Source: a virus
Taxonomy: Duplodnaviria; Caudoviricetes
IMG/VR virus record: IMGVR_UViG_3300021376_002324
Span: 1 to 60,442 of that record
Strand: one strand, 5' to 3'
Length of the DNA: 60,442 nt
The position numbers were made by a program, and so were the translations under genes. Below are positions 42,483 through 60,442 of this stretch, piece after piece. Under the pieces are notes generated by a model that was not told where the DNA came from, did no database searches, and saw only the letters and a program-made list of their open reading frames with translations. The number at the start of each line of letters is the position of its first letter. Position 1 is the stretch's first letter.

Positions 42483-42497
42483 ATCCCTTTTCTTTTT
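42466..42497. terminator. Bidirectional terminator between convergent genes
   Basis: AAAAGGGACTC-AATT-GAATCCCTTTT imperfect stem with A/T runs on both sides. Confidence 0.55.
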
Positions 42498-45168
42498 ATT
42501 TATTTTTTAATTCGTCTATTTGTTTTTGTTGTTCTTTAACACATTCGATAAGAAGTGCAACTAACCTTTCGTATTTAACAGCTTTGAATCCGTTTTCTCT
42601 TGTTGTAACAATTTCAGGTAAGATTGATTCAATCTCTTGTGCAATAACCCCGATATCATGTCCTTCATTCTCATGTATTCCTTCCATTGGAATCCAATCA
42701 TATTCATAACCACCAATTTGATTTAATTTTTCTAAAGGATTAGAAATTGGTGTTACATTTTCTTTAAGTCTTGAGTCGGAACCATAGAACGCGATTACAT
42801 CATTTGTTGCTCTGATTAAACCTGTCGTTGATGGTGCTGCGGTGCCAACACCTAAAGCGTTGAATTGAACATTCGAGTTGGTCGCCACAGCTTGTCCAAT
42901 TGAAATTGTTACTGCCCCTGTTGCAGCACTTACACTAATACCCGTTCCTGCAACCGCCGATGTCACACCTGCGTTATTTAATGTTACCGATGACCCTAAT
43001 GCAACTGATCCTCCACCACTCATACCTGTACCAGCCGTAACTGTTAAAGATGAGTTAGCTAATTTACTGTTTGTTACAGATGCATCAACTAATTGAGAAG
43101 CGTTGATGGTTTTATTTGTTAAAGTTTGTGATGTGGTTCTTAAAACAATATCATCCTCAGAACCTAAAGGACCCGCAATCCACTTATCATTTGTTGTATC
43201 CCAAAGGAAAGAACCCGATGTTAAAGTTGATGCTGTAGCATCTCTTACAACTAAACCGGCATTTGTTGCTCCAGAACCATTCAATTGAATGATATTATCT
43301 GCGATATTAACAGTTGTTGAGTTTACAGTGGTTTGTGTACCTGAAACCACTAGATTACCACCAATTGTTACCGTCGTACCGTCATCTGTAATTGAAGAGT
43401 TACCTACAGTTGTTGATGAAGTAAATTTAACTATTGTGTTATTAGTTCCAGATGTTGTAATTGATGTACCAGAACTTCCTGATGTTCCACTACTTCCACT
43501 AGAACCTGAACTACCCGAGCTTCCTGAAGAACCACTTGAACCTGAACTACCTGATGTTCCACTACTTCCACTTGAACCAGATGTTCCACTACTTCCACTA
43601 GAACCTGAACTACCCGAGCTTCCTGAAGAACCACTAGAACCTGAACTACCTGATGTTCCACTACTTCCACTAGAACCTGAACTACCTGATGTTCCACTAC
43701 TTCCACTAGAACCTGAACTACCTGATGTTCCACTACTTCCACTAGAACCTGAACTTCCTGATGTTCCACTACTTCCTGAAGAACCACTAGAACCTGATGT
43801 TCCTGAAGAACCACTAGAACCTGAAGAACCACTAGAACCTGATGTCCCGCTACTTCCTGAAGATCCAGATGTACCTGAAGAACCACTACTTCCTGAACTA
43901 CCTGAACTACCTGAACTACCTGAAGTACCAGATGAACCGCTAGAACCACTTGAACCCGATGTTCCACTACTTCCTGAACTACCTGAAGTACCAGATGAAC
44001 CTGATGAACCTGAACTTCCAGAACTTCCCGAACTACCTGAAGTACCAGATGAACCGGAACTACCTGAAGTGCCAGATGAACCGGAAGACCCAGATGTTCC
44101 ACTCGTTCCAGATGTACCAGCGGCACTTAACCATGTGTTTCCATTATATCTATAAATGTTAGTATCTGTTGTATTATAAAATAATTGACCAGTAATAGAT
44201 CCCAAAGCCTCACCCGTTGTAGATGCGGTCGGAATTACCATTGATCCCGTTACTCTAAGTGAACCTGTAAATTGATGTACATCCGCTTGATCATTACCAA
44301 ATGCGGTAGAACCACTTGCGAATTGAACGGTCATATTAGTTACTGATGAACTAACAATATATTGTTGTGCTGTTAAGTTTCCTAAAACAGTTAAATTATT
44401 ACTTATTGTTTGACTTCCTGTTAAAGATAATGTCGTACCATCAAATCTTAAATTAGACTCAACTGTTGCGTTTGGTGATGAACCATTTAATGTAATTATA
44501 CCATTATCGGTTTCGCCAACCATAGTAACCGTACCTGAACTACCACTGGAACCTGACGATCCTGAAGTACCTGAAGTTCCTGAAGAACCAGATGAGCCCG
44601 ATGAGCCACTAGAACCTGATGTACCAGAAGAACCTGAAGAACCTGAACTTCCTGATGAACCAGATGAACCCGAAGTACCAGATGTTCCTGATGTACCTGA
44701 AGTTCCTGAACTTCCACTTGACCCACTAGAACCTGATGTACCAGATGAGCCCGATGAGCCACTAGAACCTGATGTACCAGAAGAACCTGAAGTTCCAGAT
44801 GAACCACTTGAACCTGAACTACCTGATGAACCCGAACTTCCTGAAGTACCACTTGTTCCCGATGTTGCCGCGGTATATGATGTTCCGTTTATAAATAAAC
44901 TACCAGTAACGGCCAAAGATCCATCGATTTGTTGGTCACCAACAAAATCATTACTGCCGGTAATTGCGAATTCTAATGAATCCTTACCGTCTAATAGTTG
45001 TGAATTTAACGCTACTGAAGCGGTTTGTGCGTAAGATGAACTTATAGCGTTTGAGGTGGTACCACTGATTGTCGCGTTAATCGTACCTAATACTGTAAGG
45101 TCACCCTGAATGTGACCTGAACCTGAAACTGATAATGATCCGGTTATGTGTGGTTCAAATACTTTCAT
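42496..45168 (-). CDS. Tail fibre protein with Gly-Ser/Thr-Ser triplet tracts and C-terminal intramolecular chaperone (peptidase S74)
   Basis: SDSRLKEN, GVIAQE, LLIECVKEQQKQIDEL; LTNKTI fibre motif; TATTTAT at 45192-45198. Confidence 0.88.
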   Translation of the reverse strand: MKVFEPHITGSLSVSGSGHIQGDLTVLGTINATISGTTSNAISSSYAQTASVALNSQLLDGKDSLEFAITGSNDFVGDQQIDGSLAVTGSLFINGTSYTAATSGTSGTSGSSGSSGSSGSSGSSGTSGSSGTSGSSGSSGSSGTSGSSGSSGSSGTSGTSGTSGTSGSSGSSGSSGSSGSSGTSGSSGSSGSSGSSGTSGTSGSSGSSGSSGTVTMVGETDNGIITLNGSSPNATVESNLRFDGTTLSLTGSQTISNNLTVLGNLTAQQYIVSSSVTNMTVQFASGSTAFGNDQADVHQFTGSLRVTGSMVIPTASTTGEALGSITGQLFYNTTDTNIYRYNGNTWLSAAGTSGTSGTSGSSGSSGTSGSSGSSGTSGSSGSSGSSGSSGSSGTSGSSGSSGTSGSSGSSGSSGTSGSSGSSGSSGSSGSSGTSGSSGSSGTSGSSGSSGSSGSSGTSGSSGSSGSSGTSGSSGSSGSSGTSGSSGSSGSSGTSGSSGSSGSSGTSGSSGSSGSSGSSGSSGSSGSSGTSGSSGSSGTSGSSGSSGSSGSSGSSGSSGSSGTSGSSGTSITTSGTNNTIVKFTSSTTVGNSSITDDGTTVTIGGNLVVSGTQTTVNSTTVNIADNIIQLNGSGATNAGLVVRDATASTLTSGSFLWDTTNDKWIAGPLGSEDDIVLRTTSQTLTNKTINASQLVDASVTNSKLANSSLTVTAGTGMSGGGSVALGSSVTLNNAGVTSAVAGTGISVSAATGAVTISIGQAVATNSNVQFNALGVGTAAPSTTGLIRATNDVIAFYGSDSRLKENVTPISNPLEKLNQIGGYEYDWIPMEGIHENEGHDIGVIAQEIESILPEIVTTRENGFKAVKYERLVALLIECVKEQQKQIDELKNK
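43463..44118 (-). repeat. (G-S/T-S)n coding repeat tract 2 (about 70 triplets)
   Basis: 9-bp periodicity; near-exact 36-bp tandem units at 43631-43774. Confidence 0.9.
44531..44866 (-). repeat. (G-S/T-S)n coding repeat tract 1 (about 37 triplets)
   Basis: Uninterrupted SGT/SGS triplets in the translation. Confidence 0.9.
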
Positions 45169-47350: not shown

Positions 47351-48009
47351 TATCTCTTTGTTATAATAATAATTCCATTTAGGAAGTTTATTGATTCAAC
47401 ATCCACCAAACAACCTGGTTGAGTTCTTTTTGATAAATCAATTAACCAATCTTCTCTTCTACCGTGTACATTTGGCACATCAAAATTCATTAATCCTCTA
47501 AAGTTGACATCATCAACTAAAGATTTAAAAACCTCAACACTTGTTGTTGGTTTTAAGTAACCTCCTTCATAATCTTCCCAATACGCCGTTCCACAGTCCT
47601 CTATAATGTAAACACCACCCGACTTTAAACTTGTCCATAGATACTGAAAAGAGTACACGACATGTGAATTTAAATGTGAACCATCGTCTAATATCATATC
47701 AAATGGTCCGTACTCATTTCTAATTTTAGTTAAAAATTCACCATCAGCCTGTGAACCAATCTCAACTTTAATTCTTTCTTCTTCATATTGTTTACATTCA
47801 GGAGTAATGTCAATACCTAAAATATTGGAACGATAAAAATACTCTTTCCATGTCTTTAATGATTTACCCTTTAAGATACCAATCTCTAAAATGTTTAAGT
47901 TATCGTACCTGTTGAATGGTAAATATTTTTCGTACTTCACACAGTAATTGTGAATGTCAGAACTCTTGTCTGTTCCATACGATTGTGCTATTTTGTTTAA
48001 TGTACTCAT
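47350..48009 (-). CDS. Class I SAM-dependent sugar O-methyltransferase (MycE-like)
   Basis: GTDK...HNY, ILEIGI, DDGSH, GGVYIIED. Confidence 0.8.
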   Translation of the reverse strand: MSTLNKIAQSYGTDKSSDIHNYCVKYEKYLPFNRYDNLNILEIGILKGKSLKTWKEYFYRSNILGIDITPECKQYEEERIKVEIGSQADGEFLTKIRNEYGPFDMILDDGSHLNSHVVYSFQYLWTSLKSGGVYIIEDCGTAYWEDYEGGYLKPTTSVEVFKSLVDDVNFRGLMNFDVPNVHGRREDWLIDLSKRTQPGCLVDVESINFLNGIIIITKR

Positions 48010-50732
48010 CTTATAAAATATATCATTTGTAATGCATTATTTGAACCCATAAACATAAGGTAGGAATTAAATCCAAGAATAACCATTCTGTTTATAAGTT
48101 TCTGTCTTAGTTCTTCATCATAATTGAAATGTGAGTGGTGATATTCCATAGAGATTGTTTTTACCTTCATCAAGTTTTCATCACTGATTCCTGATAGAGC
48201 ATAGTGTTCAGCACCCTCGATATCAACCTTTAAAAAATCAATTCTATCAATTATTCCTGTGTCAAATAGATAATCTAATGTGTAAGTTCGTACTTTATAT
48301 GATTCGGAATTCTCTTGTGTTCCAAATAAATTAGATCCACCTAAATGAACACTTTCATATAAATTCATTTCCCCAACTTGATTACTCATCGCAGCGTTAA
48401 ATAAAATTGAATTTGGACCCGCATTTAATGAAAGTAGTTTGAAGTATCTTTTATCGGGTTCAAAAGAAATAACTTTACCTGCACCTTCACTATGAGCCCA
48501 TCTATTGAATACTCCGATGTTACCTCCTAAATCTACAACGATGTCACCTTCGTGTATTGTCTTTTCTCTATTTTTATAATAGTCTCTTAAGTTGTATATT
48601 TCATGAAAGATAGCAGGTGCCCAACCAAATTTTTCAGCGACTTGCATTGTGCTACCCTCATATTCAAATAGATTTTCAAAATTTTCCAACTTATAAACAT
48701 CAGTATAAAAACACTTTGATTTATAAAATGAATTATCTCTTTTCATTTTAATATACTCAATCATTTTATCTGATATTTCTGCGTTCTTGTTGCCGTGAAA
48801 ATAAATGATGTCAGATTTATCTTTTGGAATATATTGATACCCAAAAATTCTATTAAAGTTTTGTGGTCCATCTTCATTCCAAAATTTATAAAACTGATGT
48901 AGAGTTCTATCTATAAATCCTTCATCACCATCATATGATGAAGTATCGAAGTTTGATAATGGTAAATGATTAGTGTACCCATACTTCCATCTCATTGCAT
49001 TATCAATACCCTCGTCGTTCCATAGATATAGTCTTTTATAATCGTTAGGATTTTCTTTCATTATTGTTTCATAATGATTAATTATCTCTTCAAACCATGT
49101 TTTAGAACTATCGTTATAAATGTAGAAACAAACGTGGGCATAAGGATTACCTTTACTTATTCCCCATTCGTTACTTAATTGTTCATTGAACAATTGTGAT
49201 TTTTTACCATTATCGTACATACCAAAAAATTCTTCCTGTACATGTATATCAGACAATGGATATCTACCAACTTTATTAAAATATTTTCTAACTGTATCTA
49301 TATTATGGTTTACAACAACATCACCATCAATCCATATCAGATGTTCGAAACCTTCATTTAAAGATTCGATACAAGCATGTTGTTTCCAATACCACTTATC
49401 GTGTTCAGAAATTTTGGGTGGGTTAATTGTTCTTTTAATAACATTTGGGTAATTAAATGGAACTTCACAATGAACACCATATACTATAATTTTTTGTTCG
49501 GAAAATTCTATTAACGATTGTACTAATTTTTCGATAACGGGCATATATCCAAGATTACCTGTTGTAACAAACGCAAAAGGTTTTTTATTCCTCATTAATA
49601 TTTCGGACGCATCTTTCGCAATCTTATTCCAATTAAAGTTTTTATGAATTTCTTTAGAATCGGATACCGCATTAACCCACATCGCTGTGTTATAGTCATA
49701 TGCATTTCTCATCTTTACTTTTAAGTCATCCCAATCTGGTTCACAATACTCGCCAGGCCATTCTTTGTGTTCGATATTTGCGGGTCTCATTCCTTTTATT
49801 GCCACAGGAACACCTTTATCTTTTGCAAATTGTAATTGTCCACCCCAATCAGAATATATAGAAGGGGTACCACACGCCATCGCTTCAATCAATGGTAGAT
49901 TCCACCCTTCACTTCTTGCACAAGAAACAAATACGTGTGCCGTTTGTAAATATTTTACATACTCTTCTCGAGATGGGAAGTTTAAAAATTTAATATTTTT
50001 TGTGTCAATACCGTAATGTTTAACTCTTTCTTCAGTAGAATTTAATCCATCGTAAGGATATGGATTTTCTACAGATGCAAGTAACTCAACATCATTTGTA
50101 TCTTTAAATTCTTCTGAGAAAGCTTTTAATATTTCTGTGGTCCCTTTTCTATAATCCCATCTTCCAAAATGTACAAATCTAATTTTCTCTCTTTTTGGGA
50201 ATTTTTTAATTGGTTTAAAAGTATTAATATCAACACCTTCGGGAACAATGAATATTTTTTCGGATGGATAACCCTGTTCAACTAAACAATCAAACTGCCA
50301 TTGCGTTGGTACCCATATTTCATCAAAATAAAAAAGTCTTTTGAAAAATTCATCGGGGTATCTGGTTGATTCCCATACATTATATGCAATTTTATAACCT
50401 TCATATTCCTCATAGAAATAGTGGTTATTAGTTTCCATCAAAACGATATGAACGTCAGGTACAAAATCACCTTTGTAATTGTACATTGGTTCGTCTATCC
50501 TACCATTACCATCCGCCTTGTGTAGTGTTTGTAGGATTAACATATCACCAATTTCTTTGGTGAAATAGGATTCACCATCATGTGGACGATTGTTCATACC
50601 CTTCCAACTGTTACCAATTGTTAGGTTTCTGATTTTGACTGTGTGATATTTGTTTAACGCACAAAAAAATGAACGTGCGTGATTGGCGTATCCTGTTGTA
50701 CCAATAAAAGGTGCGTGTCCAAGTATTTTCAT
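48006..50732 (-). CDS. Fusion: GT4 glycosyltransferase + GT-A-like domain + FkbM methyltransferase
   Basis: EGWNLPLIEAMACG; WIDGD; VDLGGNIG, FEP, LKVDIEGAE. Confidence 0.82.
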   Translation of the reverse strand: MKILGHAPFIGTTGYANHARSFFCALNKYHTVKIRNLTIGNSWKGMNNRPHDGESYFTKEIGDMLILQTLHKADGNGRIDEPMYNYKGDFVPDVHIVLMETNNHYFYEEYEGYKIAYNVWESTRYPDEFFKRLFYFDEIWVPTQWQFDCLVEQGYPSEKIFIVPEGVDINTFKPIKKFPKREKIRFVHFGRWDYRKGTTEILKAFSEEFKDTNDVELLASVENPYPYDGLNSTEERVKHYGIDTKNIKFLNFPSREEYVKYLQTAHVFVSCARSEGWNLPLIEAMACGTPSIYSDWGGQLQFAKDKGVPVAIKGMRPANIEHKEWPGEYCEPDWDDLKVKMRNAYDYNTAMWVNAVSDSKEIHKNFNWNKIAKDASEILMRNKKPFAFVTTGNLGYMPVIEKLVQSLIEFSEQKIIVYGVHCEVPFNYPNVIKRTINPPKISEHDKWYWKQHACIESLNEGFEHLIWIDGDVVVNHNIDTVRKYFNKVGRYPLSDIHVQEEFFGMYDNGKKSQLFNEQLSNEWGISKGNPYAHVCFYIYNDSSKTWFEEIINHYETIMKENPNDYKRLYLWNDEGIDNAMRWKYGYTNHLPLSNFDTSSYDGDEGFIDRTLHQFYKFWNEDGPQNFNRIFGYQYIPKDKSDIIYFHGNKNAEISDKMIEYIKMKRDNSFYKSKCFYTDVYKLENFENLFEYEGSTMQVAEKFGWAPAIFHEIYNLRDYYKNREKTIHEGDIVVDLGGNIGVFNRWAHSEGAGKVISFEPDKRYFKLLSLNAGPNSILFNAAMSNQVGEMNLYESVHLGGSNLFGTQENSESYKVRTYTLDYLFDTGIIDRIDFLKVDIEGAEHYALSGISDENLMKVKTISMEYHHSHFNYDEELRQKLINRMVILGFNSYLMFMGSNNALQMIYFIR

Positions 50733-50769: not shown

Positions 50770-51837
50770 CTAAATTAGGGTTTTTTCTATTGGTAAAAAC
50801 TCGTGTAAATTGTGAAATACGAATGGATCAGTTGCAACTTTTTTAAACTCTCTTAAAAAATAGTTGTGTTCAGGATGTTTCGGGTCCCAAATTTTTAATT
50901 TTTCAAACTGTTCAGGTGTGAAGGTTCCCCAATTATTTATTTTACCATAGAAAACCTTTGTTTTCGTTCCAAATATCTCTTTCATTTTATTAAGAAAGGG
51001 CCCCATTTCTCTATAGTTAGACTTTTGGACTACAAATGATGTTTTTACTTTTCTCATACTTTTGATGGTAGCAATGAATTTAAGGTTAGATATAAGAATA
51101 TCCCAATTACCTCCCAATCTTGTAACCATTTCATATGTTTTCCTTGTTCCCGCATCAATACTAATTTCACAGCTCTTAACATATTTGTGTATGTTCGGCA
51201 TAGAATCCCACATTTCCTTATTCCAAAGACTGGCGTTGGTGTGAAGATGTATTGAATTAAGTTTTGGATATTTCTTTGGGTCGAAGTTCCTAAGGTAATT
51301 TCTGTAAGATACAGATGCAAATGGATCCGCAGTACCCGAACAATAAATCATTTCAATTGAATCCGAAAATGTTTCTTCCATTTCTTCAATTGTAGTGTTT
51401 ATTCTTTTAATTGACGATGAATTAGCAACAATCATATCTACCCTACAGGAAGGACATTTATAGTTACAAGTTCTGTCAAAAGACATTTGTAAAATTGTTG
51501 GTCCATAATCAATCTTTGTTTTTTTCTCGAGTACGTTATCTTTTATATAATCAGGTAAATCTTGAATTCTTTTTATTGGTCCAAAAATATCCATATTATA
51601 GTTCAAAAGTTGTGATAAAAATGGACATTGTTTTTTATCACAAAACCTATAAGATCCGTCCATAACAGACTCCCTTATTTCCATAGCCTCAGTACTATTC
51701 CATAATTCTTTTAATGGTACGTTTCTTGGTAGTTCCTTTTTTAACCAACTCGCACAACACATAAAGTTTCGAGTTTCATGTATTTCTAATGCTTGAAATG
51801 GAACAGTACAAACGTAGTCTTTCAAATCTATAATCAT
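50770..51837 (-). CDS. Radical SAM protein with N-terminal SPASM/Twitch-like Cys domain
   Basis: CNYKCPSC (CxxxCxxC); N-terminal CTVPF...MCC...C...CP. Confidence 0.85.
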   Translation of the reverse strand: MIIDLKDYVCTVPFQALEIHETRNFMCCASWLKKELPRNVPLKELWNSTEAMEIRESVMDGSYRFCDKKQCPFLSQLLNYNMDIFGPIKRIQDLPDYIKDNVLEKKTKIDYGPTILQMSFDRTCNYKCPSCRVDMIVANSSSIKRINTTIEEMEETFSDSIEMIYCSGTADPFASVSYRNYLRNFDPKKYPKLNSIHLHTNASLWNKEMWDSMPNIHKYVKSCEISIDAGTRKTYEMVTRLGGNWDILISNLKFIATIKSMRKVKTSFVVQKSNYREMGPFLNKMKEIFGTKTKVFYGKINNWGTFTPEQFEKLKIWDPKHPEHNYFLREFKKVATDPFVFHNLHEFLPIEKTLI

Positions 51838-52487
51838 ATTAATCCGCTAATTTTTTGATTTATTCTAACCTTTTTATATGGTGAGTTAATCCATTCATCA
51901 ATACATGTTTGATTGTGTGATATTTTTAAATACTCTAATAACTTGTCTAATGTTGGTCTATCTTTTCTAATAAATAGATTTTCATATGTAACCAAAGGAT
52001 AACCCCTTTTTGACATATTTTTTAAAAATTCTGACTCATTCTCTAAGTGTTGGGATATCCCAAAAATTTCCTCTTCGTCCTCTTTTTTCAAATCATAAAA
52101 TTTTTGTTTATGCCAAAGTGGGGATATGGTTCTATTTTTTGATAATTTTAAATGATAGAATAGACTTTCAGCTTGTTTTCTTTTGTCTTCTCTCTCTAAT
52201 ATTATAATTTTATCAAAATACGAATACACCCACACTAAATAATCTTCAAAACATTCAAATGATTCGTATGGGTAATTATCCCTATCTATAAAGGTTTTGA
52301 CTAAAACATCATTCGTATTAATAAATTCTTCTATAGTTTTAGGTTTACTCTCTTTATCAATATTGAGGTAATTAAATGGTTCAAAAAAAAGTTTATGGTT
52401 CTTTTTTTCTTTTGTTAATAAACAATTAATGAGATAAAATAAGGATGTTGATCCACTCCTACCATTGCAAAAAATCACAATTCTCAT
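51834..52487 (-). CDS. Sulfotransferase-like protein (Stf0-like)
   Basis: GRSGSTSL 5'-PSB loop, EPF, R...QAES 3'-PB, YENL. Confidence 0.65.
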   Translation of the reverse strand: MRIVIFCNGRSGSTSLFYLINCLLTKEKKNHKLFFEPFNYLNIDKESKPKTIEEFINTNDVLVKTFIDRDNYPYESFECFEDYLVWVYSYFDKIIILEREDKRKQAESLFYHLKLSKNRTISPLWHKQKFYDLKKEDEEEIFGISQHLENESEFLKNMSKRGYPLVTYENLFIRKDRPTLDKLLEYLKISHNQTCIDEWINSPYKKVRINQKISGLI

Positions 52488-53029
52488 AATAATTTTTTAT
52501 TGGTGTCTGATTTATAATATTTAAAATCAGTATTAGTTATCCAAATATTAAGAGCACATCTGATACCTTCATTAACCGGCATTACACCATGATAAATTTT
52601 ACTACCATCAAATGAAATACATTCACCAATTTCTAATTTATACTTTTCACATTCCTTAATATTTTTTGGTTTTTCTGAAAGTACAAATCTCCCATCAGAA
52701 AAGTTTTTTGATAATACTATGACCGTTGTTAATTGAGAAGTCGAATCTAAATGTAGGTCTAACCACCTTCCGTCGTAATATTTGGTAAGGCTTATGTTAG
52801 AGTCTTTAATATGAAAATTGTTTAAATCAAACCATAATTTAAACTCTCCTGAAATGTATTTTTCTTTTAATTTACTTATGATTTTTTCTTTAAATTCGTC
52901 AACATAAACTCTCTTACAATCCCATGTTTCGGATGAATGATATGAGAATTGTGTTCCATTTTCTTCACAAAATTTAATTATATCATCACATTCCGACTCA
53001 TCAAAAAATTTATTTACTGAAAAATTCAT
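52484..53029 (-). CDS. 2OG-Fe(II) oxygenase
   Basis: HLD...HGV..V.EG.R. Confidence 0.8.
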   Translation of the reverse strand: MNFSVNKFFDESECDDIIKFCEENGTQFSYHSSETWDCKRVYVDEFKEKIISKLKEKYISGEFKLWFDLNNFHIKDSNISLTKYYDGRWLDLHLDSTSQLTTVIVLSKNFSDGRFVLSEKPKNIKECEKYKLEIGECISFDGSKIYHGVMPVNEGIRCALNIWITNTDFKYYKSDTNKKLL

Positions 53030-53862
53030 ATTATTCGTTTATTTATGTCTTTAGTAATATAATTTAATATATTTTTCTCTAAAATCCAATGGTATAATTC
53101 TTTTGCAATTAATTGATAACCAAATTTATTTGGATGTTTTCCACCATAATGATTATCATCCCATAATTTTTTGTCTTCCCATACCTCTTTTTTATTTGTT
53201 TCACATAAATGGTCTTTAAATGTTTTATTTGAAAAATTCCAATAATGATTTTTATTAATGTAATCGGTTTTATCTATTTCTTTCAAAATATTCTTCTTTA
53301 TCATAGTATCAAATGCATCACAAAAAACATATCTAACACCAATTCTATCGAACATAAACTGAAGATACAGAATATAATTTTGATTTATAATATTATAATA
53401 CTGATCAGAAAAGAGATTTTCTAAAAAGAATTCTTTGTAATCTTTTTTTAGATTTATATTTATGTGTGAGTCAGTATTATTTAATTTGGTTGTATTTACG
53501 ATGAATTGGTAAACGTGTTTTTTATTTAAGTATCTTTCCCCCCAAAAATGCCAAGGATTATCATCAGGAAAAAATGGTAAAGAATCTCTTAGAGATGAAG
53601 ACCACATAATAACAACTAAATCATTTTTAGAAAAAGTTTGATTATGTATTGAATGGGAAACCACATCAAATATTGTTTTATTTGATGATGCGCCCATTCC
53701 GAAATTACAAAACTCTATTTCCAATAAATCAGATAGATACTTCGGCCAACAAAAATTTTGTCTAATTTTAGTTCTCTCCTCAGGTGTGTTTGTTTTTCCC
53801 TCTTCAATTAAGTCACCGCCAACACCTTCAGTCCAACTATCTCCAAATGTAAACAACTTCAT
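53026..53862 (-). CDS. SGNH/GDSL-like paralog 6
   Basis: FGDSWTEG, GASSN, KHPNKFGY. Confidence 0.65.
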   Translation of the reverse strand: MKLFTFGDSWTEGVGGDLIEEGKTNTPEERTKIRQNFCWPKYLSDLLEIEFCNFGMGASSNKTIFDVVSHSIHNQTFSKNDLVVIMWSSSLRDSLPFFPDDNPWHFWGERYLNKKHVYQFIVNTTKLNNTDSHININLKKDYKEFFLENLFSDQYYNIINQNYILYLQFMFDRIGVRYVFCDAFDTMIKKNILKEIDKTDYINKNHYWNFSNKTFKDHLCETNKKEVWEDKKLWDDNHYGGKHPNKFGYQLIAKELYHWILEKNILNYITKDINKRII

Positions 53863-53868
53863 AATTCA

Positions 53869-54009
53869 TTATGAAAGATGTTTTTCCTTTACCTTGTTAA
53901 TAAAACTTTGAAATGCGTTAGAAACCTTTACCTTTAACTCATTTGATAAAGGTACGATAGTCGGTTTAATTGTTTGAATTGGTCTTTCTACTTTTACGTT
54001 GTTTGCCAT
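53869..54009 (-). CDS. Small protein (46 aa) downstream of the Hint-precursor gene
   Basis: Manual translation MANNVKVERPIQTIKPTIVPLSNELKVKVSNAFQSFINKVKEKHLS; fills the gap. Confidence 0.6.
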   Translation of the reverse strand: MANNVKVERPIQTIKPTIVPLSNELKVKVSNAFQSFINKVKEKHLS

Positions 54010-54031
54010 TACTACTTATTTTTAATATTTT

Positions 54032-55522
54032 TTATAATTTTGGTGATGGTTGACATCCTCCACAGGTGTTATCATAACAATAGTTTCCACAGAATGACCA
54101 AGGACACCAACAACCGTTGTGCATAACAGTAAAATCACCATCACCAATATCAACTAAAAATAAATCTGATGGTTCAAAATCTAATCCGTAAATGGTCATA
54201 TTTGCATGTTCCATTTGTAAATTGGTTATTTCTAATGTTGTGAGTTCTTGTGTGTTTGAATCGGTGATTACTAATTTATCACCAACATACATTTGGTTTA
54301 ATTTTTCAAACTTTGTTGATAATGAACCTGATTCCTCTATATAGTACGTACATGACGGCGAATCAACCCAAGATTTACCGTCGGCGGTTGTTACTCTAAT
54401 ATAAATCGTATCAATTGATGCGGATGTAATTGTTTGTAAAGATGATGAAACTTGAGTAAGTGTTTGATTACTTTTTGATAAAGTACTGTCCCAACCTAAT
54501 ACGTCCATTTTACCCTCTTCAAAATTTGCGGCATGATTATCGTTAAAATCAATAAAGTCTATCGATCTTATATAGTCACCAATTTGAATTGTATTTACAT
54601 CTTTTAATGAACCGGTATAATCTAAAATCACAGAGTCTTCATCGGTATGATAATTATTTACCGGATGTTTTTCTTTAATACCCACCTCTTTTGTTATAAA
54701 TCTATGTCTACTTTTTCTATTTAATATTGTAGTTCCCTCGATAAATTCATTATTAAAGAAATTAACAGGTACAACAGTGGATTGTTTATATCCACCAAGA
54801 TTTATTACATCTAGATTTGAACCATATACAATGTCGATACCTCTTATTATTGCATATTTTCCGTCCACCAAATTATCATTTGAAAAAATAAATTCTTGTA
54901 TCAAATAATCCTCTGGTAAATTTGTTTTTAAATCATTTAACTGAGATGAATTCGATAAAACATGTATTTCAGGGTATAGAGATAAATCGTAATTTGGTAT
55001 TCTTGATTTTATAATTGCATTAGGATTTTGAGACTGGTAGTCAACGTTAGTTAAAGTGTCTACGTTTCCGTTAGATGAGACAAAATATGTATTTGGGACG
55101 TATGTACTTCCACTCATTAATGAAAAAAATCCAAATTTATCTGCACAGTAAGTATCATCAATAAGTGCGGTCGTATCATATGACTGTCTCAAAATAAACT
55201 TGTTGGGGGCATCTTCAATAAACGGTACTGTAACAGAATTAATAGGAACAGGATATTCATTGAACGATATGTTGTTTTCCACACATTTTTCTTGTAATTT
55301 TTGTTTAAAAACAAACGGACCATTTATTGGTGTATATGACTCTAGTTCGTTATAAATAAAATGAAATTCTGTTATGTTTAAAGAATTTAATGTATTAAAT
55401 AACACGTCATAATCGAGAAACGACGCCCCGTCAGAATATATCGTTGTATTTGTGTTTGTCTCTAATATCTTAACGTCTCCGTTAATTTCTAATAAATCGG
55501 TACCTAGAATTACACCTCTCAT
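54032..55522 (-). CDS. Circularly permuted ATP-grasp-like domain + Hint domain + C-terminal Cys-rich peptide
   Basis: GTDLL...KILETNTN, YVPNTY, AIIKS, LIQEFI; Hint blocks SLKDVNTIQIGDYIRS and IYGLDFEPSDLFLV...VMHN; tail GCWCPWSFCGNYCYDNTCGGCQPSPKL. Confidence 0.7.
   Translation of the reverse strand: MRGVILGTDLLEINGDVKILETNTNTTIYSDGASFLDYDVLFNTLNSLNITEFHFIYNELESYTPINGPFVFKQKLQEKCVENNISFNEYPVPINSVTVPFIEDAPNKFILRQSYDTTALIDDTYCADKFGFFSLMSGSTYVPNTYFVSSNGNVDTLTNVDYQSQNPNAIIKSRIPNYDLSLYPEIHVLSNSSQLNDLKTNLPEDYLIQEFIFSNDNLVDGKYAIIRGIDIVYGSNLDVINLGGYKQSTVVPVNFFNNEFIEGTTILNRKSRHRFITKEVGIKEKHPVNNYHTDEDSVILDYTGSLKDVNTIQIGDYIRSIDFIDFNDNHAANFEEGKMDVLGWDSTLSKSNQTLTQVSSSLQTITSASIDTIYIRVTTADGKSWVDSPSCTYYIEESGSLSTKFEKLNQMYVGDKLVITDSNTQELTTLEITNLQMEHANMTIYGLDFEPSDLFLVDIGDGDFTVMHNGCWCPWSFCGNYCYDNTCGGCQPSPKL
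54116..54649 (-). other. Hint (intein-like) domain, about aa 292-469, predicted C-terminal cleavage only
   Basis: Terminal His-Asn retained; position 1 aligns to His instead of Cys; block B TxxH absent; +1 residue is Gly. Confidence 0.7.
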
Positions 55523-55544
55523 TTTTTAATTTAGTTTTACATTA

Positions 55545-55551
55545 ATAAATA
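55545..55551 (-). promoter_or_regulatory. TATTTAT putative late promoter of the Hint-precursor gene
   Basis: Same motif as upstream of the tail fibre gene. Confidence 0.45.
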
Positions 55552-55611
55552 TAACCAAATATAAAAACTTTCTAAATAGTTTTTTAAATTTTTATATATG
55601 TATATATCTAT

Positions 55612-55902
55612 TTAAATTATCGTTTTATTGTTTTTATTCTCCAATTTTTCAATAAATTTTACATCCACTTCCTTCCATTTTTTTATTGGACATGAATTAT
55701 AAAATTTTGAGTATACCTTTTTACTTAGTGGACAACCGCATAGTTTGCAAATTTCGGACCATCTATTGTTTTTAAATAGTTCTTTTCTATGTTCACAACC
55801 TTCACAAATATTTAATCTTTTTTGAGCCAATATCTTTTCATCAGTACTTGGATTAATATAAGTAACCCAAGCATCAAATATTTCCTTAAAATTAGGTATC
55901 AT
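55612..55902 (-). CDS. Small Cys-rich metal-binding protein
   Basis: RLNICEGC...CKLCGC...CPIKKW. Confidence 0.65.
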   Translation of the reverse strand: MIPNFKEIFDAWVTYINPSTDEKILAQKRLNICEGCEHRKELFKNNRWSEICKLCGCPLSKKVYSKFYNSCPIKKWKEVDVKFIEKLENKNNKTII

Positions 55903-56660
55903 ATTAGTGTTTTTTTATTTTTTGGCAAGTCATAGTAGTCATAAATACTATTATATTTATTTTTAAATTCATCATTTAACTCTAAATTAACTTTAATATC
56001 TGAACGTGAATTTACGTGTTTTAATATAAATTTTTTACCAGTTATATTTGAAACCCAGTCTTGTAATTTAGAGATTTCATCAATATTAAACCATGTTATA
56101 TTTTCATCATTATTATGCCAAATAGATTTTGGTGTAATTAGTATATTAAATATATTAATAAGATAACATTCGCGATTTAATCGAGTTGTCCTTGGTGGTA
56201 TCCTAACATATTTTTCTATAAAACCATTTTTTATCATATATTCATTTATAACCTTCCACCGTTTATCAATATTTGTTAAATCATTGGAATTAAAAAAGAA
56301 TAATTCATCTATTGATATTTTGGATAACCAATCTGATATATTATCCCACCCGGTTCGTTTGAGGTCAAAAACGACATGCTTGTATAATGAAAAGAAAGAA
56401 TCATGCCTATCCCTATTCACTGCAATTACTGGTAAGTGATTTCCAAATTTTTCTTTTAAATCCATAAGTGATTCATGCCCATGTGCTATTAAATCCATTA
56501 TTTTAGATTCGTCTATATTTTTAAAATCAATTGAATCATTGTGTTCATCCCAAATGTTCAAATTTTTAACATCTAATCCACTAAGTATACATGAATAATG
56601 AAATGAAGTGGAACCACATCTAGGTAAAGAAACATATAAAAATTTATTATCTACTAACAT
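55899..56660 (-). CDS. Sulfotransferase-family protein
   Basis: FLYVSLPRCGSTS 5'-PSB loop; R...SFFSLY; HVN. Confidence 0.65.
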   Translation of the reverse strand: MLVDNKFLYVSLPRCGSTSFHYSCILSGLDVKNLNIWDEHNDSIDFKNIDESKIMDLIAHGHESLMDLKEKFGNHLPVIAVNRDRHDSFFSLYKHVVFDLKRTGWDNISDWLSKISIDELFFFNSNDLTNIDKRWKVINEYMIKNGFIEKYVRIPPRTTRLNRECYLINIFNILITPKSIWHNNDENITWFNIDEISKLQDWVSNITGKKFILKHVNSRSDIKVNLELNDEFKNKYNSIYDYYDLPKNKKTLI

Positions 56661-57283
56661 TAAACTAAACTTTTAAATTCATTTTTAACCTTGGCCGCGA
56701 AATTAAAATTTATAATAAATCTGTCTTCGGATATTGGGTAATTTGCATGATGTGCAAACCTTCCATCAAAAACCAAACAACGTCCTTTTTTTGGTGATAC
56801 TTTAGTTAACAACTCATATGAATTTAAATCAACTTTGTTAAAGTTTCCCCGATATGTTTCTGCGTTATTACCAAATTTATTATTATATATATGTGTGTCT
56901 CCTGTTGAATCGTTTATATAATAAACCACAGCTATATGTTCAGTAATTCTATCATAGTGTAATAAATCCATTGGGTTATATTCATGATTTAGTGGTTCCG
57001 TCCAATTTATTTTCCATCTATAATTTTTTACGAATTCCAAATCAAGTTTTTTACTTACTATAATTTGTATATTATCTATTAAACTTCTTATACTATCGTT
57101 TTTACAAGACATCTGAGGATGTACCTTGGCGGGGAAAAGATGAGTTTCTTTTTTTCCACCGTATTCACCGGTTATATTTTTCAAATCTTCCCACCTTATT
57201 GTTTCATCTTTAACATAATTGTAAATTACATCCTGTTCTTCTTTCGATAGTATGTCATCAAATACGTAATAATTGTGTTTCAT
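56660..57283 (-). CDS. 2OG-Fe(II) oxygenase
   Basis: HYD, YYINDSTGDT, PKKGR..FDG...HH, RFIINFN. Confidence 0.8.
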   Translation of the reverse strand: MKHNYYVFDDILSKEEQDVIYNYVKDETIRWEDLKNITGEYGGKKETHLFPAKVHPQMSCKNDSIRSLIDNIQIIVSKKLDLEFVKNYRWKINWTEPLNHEYNPMDLLHYDRITEHIAVVYYINDSTGDTHIYNNKFGNNAETYRGNFNKVDLNSYELLTKVSPKKGRCLVFDGRFAHHANYPISEDRFIINFNFAAKVKNEFKSLV

Positions 57284-57287
57284 ATTT

Positions 57288-57947
57288 TTAAATAAAACTT
57301 TTTTCTTTTTTTATAAATTCAAAACCCACATTACCCGCCATAACTACTCTATCTATAGTTGCTTTTGGTGCATTATTTGGTGCATGTGGTATCGACCCTG
57401 GCATTATTATAAGTTCGTCTTCTTTTGGTCTTATAAAATATTCTTTATCGTTCCAACCTTTTATATATAAAACACCATCTTCATTTTCCATTACATCTGG
57501 CATTTGTATATAATAAACAAAAGTGTAATTTGGATAGAATTTTTTTTGGCTTTGGTTTATTTCAGTATGCGTATGAAATTTATCAACACCTTTTATTTCT
57601 TCATGTTTAAATTGAATTTGTATGGGATTTTTTGACCTTACTATGTTTATCCAAGCATCCGTATTTATTTTATTAAATTCTTTTTTTACATCATTTTCAT
57701 AAATTTCTTTACAGGCGTTTATACCTTCTTGATGAATTAAGTCTAAATTATTTTTAATGTCAATTTTACCTATAAAATTAATGTTTTGTTTCCACTCCTC
57801 TCTGTATCCGTAACCGTCTGTTTTAACGGTATCTTTTTTCGAATCTACTACAATATAAGACTCTCTTAATATTTCACTTTTTAATTTTACTAAATCCAAA
57901 GATTTAATCCAAATATATGTTTTATCATCAAAAAATATTTTTTTCAT
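57288..57947 (-). CDS. 2OG-Fe(II) oxygenase-like protein
   Basis: HTH, FVYYIQMP, PH, RVVMAGN. Confidence 0.7.
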   Translation of the reverse strand: MKKIFFDDKTYIWIKSLDLVKLKSEILRESYIVVDSKKDTVKTDGYGYREEWKQNINFIGKIDIKNNLDLIHQEGINACKEIYENDVKKEFNKINTDAWINIVRSKNPIQIQFKHEEIKGVDKFHTHTEINQSQKKFYPNYTFVYYIQMPDVMENEDGVLYIKGWNDKEYFIRPKEDELIIMPGSIPHAPNNAPKATIDRVVMAGNVGFEFIKKEKSFI

Positions 57948-59200
57948 TATATTAAACTTTTTGATATTCCTTTTTTATTTTTTTTAAATATGGTATTATA
58001 ATTCTGTACAAAAAATGTCAACTCATTCTCTTTCCAATCATATAGTTCAAATGCACTTATTAAATCGGTATCATTTGTAACCGAAATTTTATTTGTTTCA
58101 TCTAAAATTAATTTTAATTTATTTGGTATCGGTGCGTTATATGCGTCTTTCCAAAATGGTGTGTTCATTCTTTCATTTAAATAATGATATCGAATAAACA
58201 TCATGTTTTGCTCATTTGTTTCTCTACATATTTTATTAAACGTGTCTTTATATGACACATCAAAATTATTATCGATTAATCTTTTCAATTGTATAATAGT
58301 CGACATAAGTGAAGTTGCCTCCAATGGTTCTAAAAAACCATATGATAAACCAATAGAAATACTATTGCCTATCCAACTTCTCGTATGTGTTCCTGCTTTA
58401 AAATCAAATACCTTTTCTGTTTTTATTTCGTGTCCTAAGTATTCTTCAATTTCTTTTTTAGCGTCTTCAACAGATGTATATGAATCGTTAAAAACATAAC
58501 CACACCCCCAACGATGTTTTAATGGTATTTGAAACATCCAACCCGATTTCATAGCATGCATATAAGTATGTGTGAGGTCTTTATTTGTCAATTGTTTTGT
58601 TTGTGGTAAAAAGTAACCAAGTGCTTTATTGAGTAGTAGATATTTTGAATAATCTATCCATTCCTCTTTATGTACCCCTTGAATTATTAATCTAGCAAAA
58701 CCACTACAATCAAATATAAAATCTAAATTAATTACGGTTCCGTCTGTTAATTCGATATTATCTATATTTTCTGACGTATGATTTATTTTTTTAACTTGTC
58801 CATCTACCCATTTAACCCCCCTATCTATTGCGGTTTTTTTAAAATATTCAGAAACACGTCTGGCATCAAAATGAAACGCGGAATATTTTCTTATGTCATT
58901 TGTTTGTTTATTGATTTGATGAAATAGATGTTCGGATTGACTACCGACATGTGTCCAATTTATCAGTTTAATTCCATCTTTTGTTGTTGATCCTGTTTTT
59001 TTCGTAAAATCTTCAATGTTAATGTCTAATAATTTCAAAAACAAACCAAAATTAGAGGTTCCTCCTTCTCCTGCACCTAATATTCCAATTTTAGAACTTT
59101 CAACTAGAGTGACATCCACATTTAACCAATATTTTTGTACAGATAATGCCGTTGCCCATCCAGCAGTACCACCACCAATTATGATTACTCTTTTATTCAT
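57947..59200 (-). CDS. Flavin-dependent (tryptophan halogenase family) halogenase
   Basis: GGGTAGW, GAGEG, conserved Lys in TTKDGI, HFDA, DCSGF, GWMFQIP, GFLEPLEAT; start refined to 59200. Confidence 0.88.
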   Translation of the reverse strand: MNKRVIIIGGGTAGWATALSVQKYWLNVDVTLVESSKIGILGAGEGGTSNFGLFLKLLDINIEDFTKKTGSTTKDGIKLINWTHVGSQSEHLFHQINKQTNDIRKYSAFHFDARRVSEYFKKTAIDRGVKWVDGQVKKINHTSENIDNIELTDGTVINLDFIFDCSGFARLIIQGVHKEEWIDYSKYLLLNKALGYFLPQTKQLTNKDLTHTYMHAMKSGWMFQIPLKHRWGCGYVFNDSYTSVEDAKKEIEEYLGHEIKTEKVFDFKAGTHTRSWIGNSISIGLSYGFLEPLEATSLMSTIIQLKRLIDNNFDVSYKDTFNKICRETNEQNMMFIRYHYLNERMNTPFWKDAYNAPIPNKLKLILDETNKISVTNDTDLISAFELYDWKENELTFFVQNYNTIFKKNKKGISKSLI

Positions 59201-59757
59201 ATTAAAGTGTTTACAAAATTTTCTTTTGGTTCTAATTGAATCCAATTAACTAAAGAATATCTGACCCCTTCGGTCACTGGTGTTACTCTATGTAATAAAT
59301 TAGAGTAAAATATAAATAAATTACCAATACCTTTTTGTAATTTTACTATATTTTTCTTCCCACTATCTATGCTTATTTCTAAACAACCTCCTTCATATTC
59401 ATCATTCAATTGTAAAACTATTGATACGAATCTATTTTTATAATTATCTGATGAGTCGGTGTGCCAGTTATAAAATTCACCAACCTTATATTCTGTAAAT
59501 TGATACGGTCCTAATCCCGTAACTTTAAAACCTTTAACTTTTATTAGTTCTTCTAATTTAGTTTTAATTTTATCATCTAAAATTTCAATGTTATCTATAA
59601 ACCCAACCGAAGACTTTCTTGCAAGTTCAGAGGATACATCAACCCCATCAATAGTTACTTCCGCCTTTTTTAATTTTAATTCTAATTTATATTTTTCTAA
59701 AATGTAGGAAGATTCTTCAACCGTTAGAAAATTATTAATAATCCAAAATCTGTCCAT
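59197..59757 (-). CDS. 2OG-Fe(II) oxygenase (P4H/PKHD-like)
   Basis: WHTD, YEGG, HRVTPVTEGVRYSLVNW. Confidence 0.88.
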   Translation of the reverse strand: MDRFWIINNFLTVEESSYILEKYKLELKLKKAEVTIDGVDVSSELARKSSVGFIDNIEILDDKIKTKLEELIKVKGFKVTGLGPYQFTEYKVGEFYNWHTDSSDNYKNRFVSIVLQLNDEYEGGCLEISIDSGKKNIVKLQKGIGNLFIFYSNLLHRVTPVTEGVRYSLVNWIQLEPKENFVNTLI

Positions 59758-60327
59758 TTAAATAAGTGTTTTAGATTTTATTGATGTAGGCCACGCATTT
59801 ATAGAATACCTATTTCCTAATTCTATTACGTCAACAAAGTGGGATATATTAGAATCAAATAAAAAAATACTACCTCTTTTTTTTGGTAGAGTATTTTCAA
59901 CTCCATCAATTAAATATTTAACATATCCACCTTCATAATTATCATTTAATTGAAGAATAATTGTAATTGTTGCCCCACCCATTATTTCATGTTTATCCTC
60001 ATGCCAATTTAAAAAATCACCATTAGAATATTTGTTAAAAGAATATTTTAGAACATTTTCATATTTTATAGATTTAAATGGTGTTGTGTTATTTGAAATA
60101 TTAATTATTTTATTTGTTAAACTAATAATAAATTCATCCTCTAATGTTTCGTTAATAAAATAACAACCTTTTCTTTTATTACCAACATACTCTAAATTTT
60201 GATTTATTATTTTTTCATTCAAAAATTTAGAAGACTTCATATCAATGAGATTTTTTGATTCACCTAATTTAATTAGATAATCACATTCTTCTTTTGATAA
60301 AAATTCCTCTATAAATTTTGTAAACAT
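59758..60327 (-). CDS. 2OG-Fe(II) oxygenase (P4H/PKHD-like)
   Basis: WHED, YEGG, HFV...GNRYSINAW. Confidence 0.85.
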   Translation of the reverse strand: MFTKFIEEFLSKEECDYLIKLGESKNLIDMKSSKFLNEKIINQNLEYVGNKRKGCYFINETLEDEFIISLTNKIINISNNTTPFKSIKYENVLKYSFNKYSNGDFLNWHEDKHEIMGGATITIILQLNDNYEGGYVKYLIDGVENTLPKKRGSIFLFDSNISHFVDVIELGNRYSINAWPTSIKSKTLI

Positions 60328-60442
60328 TACATTTTATTTTTTAAACCATACTTAATCCAATTATACCAAACTCTTTCATGTAAAAAGTATATCAATGGTT
60401 TAATTACAAGTTCCCCTAAACCAACCATTCCTGCCCACTTCA
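60327..60442 (-). CDS. 3' part of a DUF2061-like membrane protein (truncated by window edge)
   Basis: Manual translation ...GELVIKPLIYFLHERVWYNWIKYGLKNKM*. Confidence 0.6.
   Translation of the reverse strand, partial: KWAGMVGLGELVIKPLIYFLHERVWYNWIKYGLKNKM

Follow-up and report, generated by a model that had tools for sequence, protein, structure and literature searches.

A four-residue C-terminal tail shared by unrelated enzymes of a phage gene cluster that encodes a predicted ATP-grasp–Hint protein

Short terminal address labels that unrelated enzymes hold in common are known from peroxisomes, encapsulins and microcompartments; in encapsulins, whose shells have the phage capsid fold, a C-terminal cargo peptide that follows a flexible linker is the rule. 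To our knowledge, such labels are not known in the pathways of peptide tailoring, whose enzymes normally each recognise the leader of the substrate. Here we describe a tail of this kind in a stretch of tailed-phage DNA, positions 1 to 60,442 of the IMG/VR virus record IMGVR_UViG_3300021376_002324 (Duplodnaviria; Caudoviricetes), which we call the window (60,442 nucleotides, nt). Between positions 50770 and 60327 the window holds 13 tightly packed open reading frames (ORFs) on the minus strand, and eleven of them, encoding enzymes or enzyme-like proteins of unrelated families, end in variants of a single short tail (Table 1). The two members without it are a 496-amino-acid (496-aa) protein with a probable ATP-grasp and a Hint domain, the putative precursor of a released peptide and hereafter the core protein, and a 46-aa protein encoded next to it. 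An earlier note on this DNA, made by a model from the sequence, had listed these eleven termini and the two exceptions, and re-reading them from the ORFs returned the same ends.

The tail is a feature of this cluster and not of the genome at large. Applying the pattern proposed in the earlier note ([KN]x[LIF][ILV]-stop) to the window ORFs of at least 60 aa (80 ORFs, picked greedily without overlap), we found it at the end of 10 of 12 cluster ORFs versus 1 of the 68 others (Fisher p=4.3e-10). Inside the same 12 cluster proteins the pattern occurs at 28 of 3046 positions, a frequency that predicts only 0.11 such termini (binomial P=2.8e-19), so that composition alone, against which the earlier note had already argued, is insufficient. 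The same contrast was obtained in a related complete phage genome (G002; 287,455 bp, CheckV completeness 100%, 351 ORFs), where 13 of the 15 ORFs of the homologous block were tagged versus 10 of 336 in the remaining genome (p=7e-16), and where, under a looser rule that asks for two hydrophobic terminal residues, 14 of 15 qualified, the core protein being the sole exception. Outside this block G002 has one paralogue of a cluster protein, an untagged SGNH protein of 484 aa, which is too few to separate the effect of position from that of family. The genome-wide enrichment that the earlier note had proposed to look for is thus present in both genomes, and the observation named there as fatal, a similar frequency in all phage genes, was not made. 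The note's internal control gave a concordant picture: the equally coupled operon at 34–42 kb mostly lacks the tail, its proteins ending LYKIV, LTKVK, AREIQ, YYSSL, YSFWK, LYVHN, FKHKW, VKEKL and KKGLN. Chance is excluded as the source of the shared termini, and we are highly confident that the tail is a peptide signal under selection and specific to this cluster.

To define the tail more closely we aligned the termini of the neighbours of the core gene, from six genes before it to five after it, in related loci of the window-like clade, where 525 of 577 unique neighbours were tagged. Counting back from the stop codon, position -4 is mostly basic or polar (K298, N78, S43), position -3 mostly small or polar (S166, T159, K80, N43), position -2 hydrophobic and never basic (L404, I103, V10, F6, M2), and position -1 is I389 or L126 for the most part, the choice of the set restricting it to I, L, M, F or V throughout. 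The K-T/S-L-I type named in the earlier note therefore stands as a type, although the consensus is wider, with K, N or S at -4, S, T, K or N at -3, L or I at -2 and I or L at -1. Within tagged families, the last two positions have an entropy of 0.3–1.7 bits versus 2–3.5 bits in the five to eight residues before them. The alignment of the family of the 96-aa protein (43 sequences) displays the same architecture, with a variable, indel-bearing linker, then an invariant K90, and then a conserved [TS]-[LI]-[IL] end; the family of the 219-aa protein mostly ends IKKEKS[LIFV][IL]. The motif lies invariably at the extreme C-terminus, and the last 12 residues of tagged proteins carry a mean net charge of +1.68 versus +0.60 in untagged ones. 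From locus to locus the proportions of I and L at the last position form a continuum, and Phe becomes more frequent there in the clade whose core proteins possess an additional Hint domain at the C-terminus (F6, L4, I3, V1; n=14, versus F in 4 of 525 in the window-like clade). Clusters with such a second-Hint core (L029–L032) can be tiny, holding only one to three tagged genes, and their ends are more often Phe.

These properties allow a comparison with the described short signals. As with encapsulin cargo-loading and microcompartment encapsulation peptides, a short terminal peptide follows a flexible linker on unrelated co-encoded enzymes that go with one protein partner, and the entropy, the 96-aa family alignment and the position of the tagged genes around the core gene together show enzymes, encoded beside the partner gene, in which a variable linker leads to a C-terminal peptide. 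The phage tail differs in being about four residues long and in needing a free end, and its constant partner gene encodes the ATP-grasp–Hint precursor; no HK97-fold shell gene was found among the 13 cluster ORFs by Pfam, PHROG and fold comparison (the last with a model of the core protein only). The sequence, too, is unlike the Gly/Ser/Leu-rich motif of encapsulin cargo. Class I PDZ ligands follow the pattern [ST]-x-hydrophobic-COOH, and the same form is present in 325 of the 525 tagged neighbours (62%), with a hydrophobic last residue throughout and a free C-terminus; K or N takes the place of S/T in 123 of 525 (K80, N43). Peroxisomal targeting signal 1 (PTS1; [SAC]-[KRH]-[LM]-COOH, as in SKL-COOH) and the 'C-motif 2' of ClpX substrates (MuA-type; basic residues, then hydrophobic ones at the C-terminus) are likewise very short C-terminal signals on unrelated proteins. 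The penultimate residue of PTS1 is basic, whereas here it is L or I in 507 of 525, and the likeness to the ClpX motif is one of form alone.

A tail of this kind could in principle be conserved as DNA, for instance as the initiation context of the next gene, and the earlier note had singled this out as a finding that would count against a peptide signal. The codons speak otherwise. At the 11 tail junctions of the window, Thr is encoded by ACC, ACG, ACA or ACT, Leu by CTA, TTA or CTT, and the stop by TAG, TGA or TAA. Among 585 tagged unique genes from related loci, with internal usage of the same genes as reference, Ser at -3 is written AGT (30%), TCA (27%), TCT (17%), TCG (15%), TCC (8%) and AGC (2%), that is, 67% TCN, versus 23% AGT and 74% TCN internally; Leu in the tail is TTA (69%), TTG (15%) or CTA (10%), all three stops are present, and the Lys, Asn and Leu codons match internal usage. 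The last codon alone is skewed, with ATA at 75% versus 47% internally, because of the ATGA and TAATG overlaps with the following gene. The tail is equally independent of the spacing of genes: in the first 17 loci, the next start lies within 5 nt in 82 of 114 tagged genes and farther away in 32, of which 14 by more than 60 nt (distances run from -4 nt to beyond 60 nt); the tail is missing from another 70 genes that are coupled just as closely. In the window itself, the radical-SAM-like gene has its tail codons at 50773–50784 and its stop at 50770–50772, and the next start is 38 nt downstream, so that the tail is found there without a start overlap. No conserved nucleotide string long enough for homologous exchange was detected at the tail in the window junctions or the 585 genes. 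With ordinary synonymous codons and 32 of 114 genes uncoupled, the tail is conserved as protein, and not as a next-gene initiation context or an effect of composition.

We then asked how far the tail extends. IMG/VR searches with the 496-aa protein, the halogenase, two distant core relatives and a P-loop enzyme yielded about 160 related loci. In 86 of the first 103 of these the core gene could be placed, and the share of unique same-strand proteins with the tail (four-residue rule) was plotted against the distance from it: 55 of 58 (0.95) at offset -4, 59 of 60 (0.98) at -3, 61 of 63 (0.97) at -2 and 54 of 61 (0.89) at -1, followed on the other side by 26 of 63 (0.41; 60 of 63 end in two hydrophobic residues) at +1, 50 of 58 (0.86) at +2 and 43 of 57 (0.75) at +3, with a fall to about 0.1 beyond some eight genes on either side. 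Grouping 1462 unique proteins into 317 families, we found at least 12 unrelated enzyme families in which 83–100% of the members are tagged. These comprise the 2-oxoglutarate (2OG) oxygenases (151/156), a P-loop family of 174 aa that includes the 217-aa protein of the window (68/68), a P-loop family of 253 aa (65/65), the Cys-rich family of 95 aa to which the 96-aa protein of the window belongs (62/64), the 215-aa family of the 219-aa protein of the window (60/60), SGNH proteins (57/69), halogenases (36/36), radical S-adenosylmethionine (SAM) enzymes (22/22 unique members), a 414-aa family (21/22) and three further families (16/16, 16/16 and 8/8); the family of the 207-aa 2OG-like protein of the window is tagged in 16 of 16. 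Other families of the same loci lack the tail, namely the core family (1/77), a 126-aa family (0/38), DUF2061 proteins (0/34), carbamoyltransferases (0/18) and the glycosyltransferase-FkbM (GT-FkbM) family (0/8), while 6 of 31 adenosine 5'-phosphosulfate (APS) kinases end in two hydrophobic residues.

Gene content and order vary between the related loci while the tail persists, and the description of the enzymes as interchangeable in the earlier note is borne out in that the tail is carried by enzymes exchanged between related clusters. Its link to the core protein is strict. When 57 loci were collected through the tagged 253-aa P-loop family, the core gene lay 0.1–3 kb downstream in 55, and the other two stop at a contig edge, so that the core was present in 55 of 55 evaluable loci seeded by a tagged enzyme. 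The tail is thus strictly C-terminal, cluster-specific and always found with the core protein.

Given this association, we characterized the core protein, for which an AlphaFold 2 model was built from a 90-sequence alignment (mean predicted local distance difference test score, pLDDT, 89.8). In the model, residues 1–280 form a probable ATP-grasp domain, residues 289–471 a Hint/bacterial intein-like (BIL) domain, and residues 472–496 a disordered, hypervariable, Cys-rich tail. Region 289–471 is, as modelled, a Hint fold with a terminal His-Asn: its VIA Z values are 14–16 (15.9 to the BIL2 structure 6tmm, 15.7 to 2lwy and 14.9 to hedgehog 1at0), Foldseek matched the core model to hedgehog 1at0 at E 1e-7, the profile of the core matched the KlbA intein at E 1.9e-8, and the H468-N469 pair that closes the domain is at least 90% conserved among the 90 sequences. 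Region 1–280 gave VIA Z values of 9.9 to YgiC (7uka), 9.2 to GspS (2io7) and 8–9 to glutathione synthetases, with a root-mean-square deviation of 4–5 Å, and weaker fold matches to TTLL, LysX/ArgX and RimK. In the same 90 sequences E21, N23, R112, D122 and R227 are invariant, and K172 is among the invariant or nearly invariant residues; judging from these charged residues, the ATP-grasp domain is probably an enzyme. The core is also the most acidic of the 80 window ORFs (isoelectric point 4.37; net charge -35, the lowest), and the net charge of the G002 core, again -35, lies at the 1st percentile of 351 ORFs.

The core family amounts to 389 representative clusters at 50% identity. The window core has no Pfam and no PHROG match, neither 50,697 phage records nor 185,579 species genomes yielded relatives of it, and a megablast search of the whole region against phages returned no match. 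Throughout the family the conserved domain of about 460 aa, up to the His-Asn, is followed by a hypervariable Cys-rich stretch of 20–70 residues, and the proteins have a conserved end of their own, mostly P-x-P-K-[LIV] or S-K-L (54032–54046, minus strand, in the window), which is distinct from the enzyme tail yet resembles it in combining a Lys with an aliphatic last residue. Among the 150 core relatives listed, none has an N-terminal extension beyond about 25 residues. In some members of the family set (P0121–P0270) further domains lie beyond the Cys-rich stretch: a canonical Hint/intein start (P0125, P0245), a self-cleaving Peptidase_S74 chaperone (P0192, L008) or BACON domains (P0261, P0264). 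Where such downstream domains are self-cleaving, the variable peptide sits between self-cleaving elements, a layout that recalls BIL-Ubl-BIL proteins or the arrangement used in split-intein cyclisation.

The companion of the core is a small ORF of 44–48 aa (ERPxTxIK...KIKEKHL(S)) that is found 3' of the core gene in 8 loci, the window among them, of the 10 that were examined; in L010 and L011 a shorter, divergent ORF of about 29–33 aa occupies this position. The 46-aa protein of the window has no PHROG match, and a fusion ('Rosetta stone') search recovered no relative of 82–2000 aa. It could, in analogy to LysW and S6, serve the ATP-grasp domain as small partner or substrate. The core and this small protein are the sole constant, untagged members of the cluster.

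Two described systems resemble the cluster in its enzymes. In the biosynthesis of peptides that are synthesised ribosomally and modified post-translationally (RiPPs), likewise, a single ribosomal precursor, variable in its C-terminal core, is the common target of radical SAM enzymes, halogenases and oxygenases. Compared with RiPPs the logic here would be reversed, since the common label is on the enzymes and a large folded leader would read it, and release would be by the His-Asn of the Hint domain instead of by a leader peptidase. No RiPP recognition element (RRE) or PqqD-type domain was detected at E<=0.01 by Pfam in the 10 cluster proteins scanned, remote RRE folds being outside the scan. 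The second system is the tightly packed arrays of T4-like cyanophages and pelagiphages (Syn9, P-SSM2, HTVC008M), which contain homologous 2OG oxygenases and tryptophan halogenases. The homologues of the window halogenase and oxygenases in HTVC008M, P-SSM2 and Syn9 are 28–32% identical and lack the tail; the motif is present in 0 of 54 array ORFs (17 in Syn9, 18 in HTVC008M, 19 in P-SSM2), with 3 of 54 ending in two hydrophobic residues, and no core relative was found for these three phages in the 50,697-record collection. As arrays without the core are also without the tail, the tail is tied to the presence of the core, although a receptor role of the core is not proven by that. The dioxygenase/halogenase arrays of these phages have been predicted to modify peptides (Iyer et al. 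2010, PMC2938197), and the array discussion in that paper mentions no shared tail.

What, then, does the tail do? The earlier note had called it a docking, targeting or degradation signal. What is upheld of this is that the tail is a signal at the level of the peptide and specific to the cluster. Of the three roles we tentatively favour docking: the label would be recognised by one receptor common to these enzymes, for which the precursor is the first candidate, and docking on the precursor as such we regard as possible but doubtful. In the docking reading, the variable lysine-rich linker and the K/N-[S/T/K/N]-[L/I]-[I/L]-COOH end would together constitute a short linear motif of one phage protein- or peptide-tailoring cluster, in which enzymes of any fold would attach to one common receptor by means of their free, hydrophobic C-terminus together with the basic residues that precede it. 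Single-gene cassettes could then bring in, remove or rearrange enzymes, and recognition of the substrate would not have to evolve anew. The candidate receptor would be the strongly acidic ATP-grasp–Hint part of the 496-aa precursor; the substrate would be the core's own disordered Cys/Trp/Pro/Tyr-rich tail, and the terminal His-Asn of the Hint domain would release it. That RiPP logic is here reversed, with an acidic folded leader (ATP-grasp plus Hint) reading, perhaps through its peptide-carboxylate site, a four-residue C-terminal label on every tailoring enzyme, we consider a conceivable but unlikely arrangement; by exchanging enzymes one gene at a time, the phages might then diversify a hypervariable, self-released Cys-rich peptide.

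Several observations suit docking. The tail is independent of fold, and co-encoded proteins that are not tailoring enzymes (the APS kinase, the 126-aa protein, DUF2061, carbamoyltransferase and GT-FkbM proteins) are without it. The predicted fold of the N-terminal domain of the core resembles that of ligases that bind a peptide or protein C-terminal carboxylate; YgiC, GspS and glutathione synthetase-type ATP-grasp ligases are known to bind the C-terminal carboxylate of a peptide or of a protein tail. The complementary charges of the acidic core and the basic tagged tails hint weakly in the same direction, as does the Phe shift in the second-Hint clade, which may reflect co-variation with the core. 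A complex prediction for core residues 1–471 (90-row alignment) and the last 30 residues of the 96-aa protein (43-row alignment) scored 0.01 and 0.00 against a mark of 0.32, and counts neither way.

Other observations weigh against it. The earlier note had termed the tail PDZ-ligand-like, and although its class I form is indeed common, PDZ_2 (PF13180) had no match at E<=0.01 in three related phage genomes that are 95–100% complete (G001, 316 kb; G002, 287 kb; G003, 237 kb), with a match in 14 of 14 cellular control genomes. The invariant charged residues of the ATP-grasp domain suggest a working enzyme rather than a pure docking module, and its carboxylate site may instead serve the precursor's own K-[LIV] end. 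The charge complementarity and the Phe shift are weak hints in that they come from a small sample of related clades whose hosts may differ. The carbamoyltransferase and the GT-methyltransferase near the cluster are of tailoring type, yet untagged. Lastly, the cluster-bound character ascribed to the tail in the earlier note holds for the cluster itself, but four SGNH-like ORFs far from it in the window have tag-like ends as well (Table 1), so that location alone fails to define the tagged set; from these paralogues, the label may mark members of the pathway outside the cluster.

Among the alternatives to docking on the precursor, the one that survives best, although we judge it unlikely, is a targeting label for some other shared destination, be it the 46-aa protein, a protein compartment or the capsid interior in the manner of encapsulin cargo, the membrane or a host scaffold. 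The peptide-level and cluster-specific evidence fits such a label equally well, and apart from the core the 46-aa protein alone is both constant and untagged in the cluster; this protein is basic, however, as are the tails. A sealed compartment is disfavoured if, as we suppose, the enzymes require soluble 2OG, FADH2, SAM and 3'-phosphoadenosine-5'-phosphosulfate (PAPS), and no shell-like gene is evident in the cluster by Pfam and PHROG. A membrane anchor would take more than two hydrophobic residues.

A C-terminal degron or unfoldase handle, similar to the ClpX 'C-motif 2' or to the end recognised by a tail-specific protease, would limit the lifetime of the enzymes. Basic residues followed by two aliphatic ones at a free C-terminus would be apt for this, and host PDZ proteases are universal, as the PDZ_2 matches in all 14 control genomes illustrate. 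There is, however, no reason why the enzymes of this cluster only should be degraded and the other ~97% of phage proteins spared; a degron does not predict the strict co-occurrence with the core, nor, unless the hosts differ, a clade-specific Phe shift, and we consider it rather improbable.

We give still less credence to the proposal that the tail is itself a substrate of the core's ATP-grasp ligase, which would activate the terminal carboxylate of the enzyme and couple it to an amine, such as the N-terminus newly exposed on the released Cys-rich peptide, and so create a covalent tether between enzyme and substrate. The resemblance of the core fold to peptide-carboxylate ligases (YgiC and GspS foremost, TTLL, LysX/ArgX and RimK less so), the invariant charged residues and the strictly C-terminal position of the motif would all be in keeping with ligation. 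Yet a precursor tethered to one enzyme would presumably be out of reach for a dozen others, and the K-[LIV] end of the precursor and the 46-aa protein are more obvious substrates. Finally, that the tail has no peptide function, but arises from translational coupling or the context of termination or is left over from a recombination site at cassette boundaries, is largely refuted and very improbable, since the close spacing of most tagged genes, the ATA bias of the last codon and the shuffled gene order that speak for it are outweighed by ordinary Ser and Leu codon frequencies, by uncoupled tagged and coupled untagged genes (the 34–42 kb operon among them) and by the lack of a shared string for homologous exchange.

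Turning to the genes themselves (Table 1), the two P-loop proteins of the cluster could be called 'sulfotransferase-like', which is only a reading of an N-terminal G-x-S-G-S-T motif in the 217-aa protein and of an LPRCGSTSF motif in the 253-aa protein. The gene for the 96-aa Cys-rich protein is the immediate upstream neighbour of the core gene in nearly all loci, and the start codon of the halogenase is the ATG at 59200, overlapping the stop codon of the gene upstream, and not the TTG at 59245. Just upstream of the tagged array, relatives of the window have an untagged trio (e.g., L014, 7891–8874) that consists of an APS kinase (Pfam E 2.5e-19), a protein of 121 aa without a family and a DUF2061 membrane protein, and the last, partial ORF of the window is a DUF2061 member. 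An APS kinase would contribute to the supply of PAPS, which fits the P-loop enzymes being sulfotransferases.

Two large untagged genes adjoin the cluster, one for an 890-aa collagen-repeat protein with a Peptidase_S74 chaperone (tail-fibre type), the other for a 908-aa fusion of a glycosyltransferase and an FkbM methyltransferase. A collagen-like fibre beside prolyl-hydroxylase-type oxygenases offers an alternative substrate. One of the distant tag-like SGNH ORFs has as its neighbour a further SGNH paralogue whose end is not tag-like. A contig that is 98–100% identical to part of the cluster (L009) bears a 'GVMAG' label, and we ruled out a giant-virus origin on account of an M23 peptidoglycan peptidase, the collagen-like fibre with its S74 chaperone, the overlapping operons, and relatives that are 95–100% complete phage records. 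The window and its relatives have the gene content of tailed phages, and the label on L009 is probably a binning error.

Table 1. Genes of the tagged cluster and other features of the window, with the last five residues of their products
Feature	Length (aa)	Coordinates	Strand	C-terminal end	Family match or remark
Radical-SAM-like enzyme	355	50770..51837	minus	EKTLI	Pfam Radical_SAM weak, E 0.0046, below cut-off
P-loop protein	217	51834..52487	minus	ISGLI	no Pfam match
2OG-Fe(II) oxygenase	181	52484..53029	minus	NKKLL	Pfam 2OG-FeII_Oxy_3 E 6.4e-8
GDSL/SGNH hydrolase-like protein	278	53026..53862	minus	NKRII	Pfam Lipase_GDSL E 4.8e-6 and DUF6071
Basic protein, conserved, untagged	46	53869..54009	minus	EKHLS	follows core gene
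Core protein, untagged	496	54032..55522	minus	PSPKL	ATP-grasp + Hint/BIL (modelled)
Cys-rich zinc-ribbon-like protein	96	55612..55902	minus	NKTII	PHROG 13558 (function not known)
P-loop protein	253	55899..56660	minus	KKTLI	no Pfam match
2OG-Fe(II) oxygenase-like protein	207	56660..57283	minus	FKSLV	Pfam 2OG-FeII_Oxy_3 E 5.3e-5, just below cut-off
Protein without family name	219	57288..57947	minus	EKSFI	no Pfam match; PHROG 274 weak
Flavin-dependent tryptophan-halogenase-like enzyme	417	57947..59200	minus	SKSLI	Pfam Trp_halogenase E 1.4e-83
2OG-Fe(II) oxygenase	186	59197..59757	minus	VNTLI	PHROG 61 E 8e-31
2OG-Fe(II) oxygenase	189	59758..60327	minus	SKTLI	PHROG 61 E 1.4e-18
SGNH-like ORF, distant		2980-3477	minus	DTSLI	tag-like
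SGNH-like ORF, distant		7397-8161	minus	NISII	tag-like
SGNH paralogue, neighbour of the preceding ORF		8164-8874		KHMLH	not tag-like
SGNH-like ORF, distant		31119-31754	minus	KGKII	tag-like
SGNH-like ORF, distant		31751-32437	minus	NRKIL	tag-like
Collagen-repeat protein	890	42496-45168	minus		Peptidase_S74 chaperone; untagged
Glycosyltransferase-FkbM methyltransferase fusion	908	48006-50732	minus		untagged
Last ORF of the window, partial		60327-60442	minus		DUF2061 member

Full-text searches of the literature, supplements not covered, returned no description of this tail or of an ATP-grasp–BIL fusion. The tail is genuine, strong and so far undescribed, kin to the known short terminal labels on co-regulated enzymes, and it was seen in well over 100 related viral contigs. 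At least 12 unrelated enzyme families in abundant, uncultured phages of 240–330 kb share one four-residue label, and this label is tied to a single ATP-grasp–Hint precursor. If the label is a docking handle, it would explain how enzymes are freely exchanged between clusters, it would provide a simple rule by which members of the pathway can be found anywhere in a genome, and it would constitute a very small, portable tag for bringing enzymes to a scaffold.

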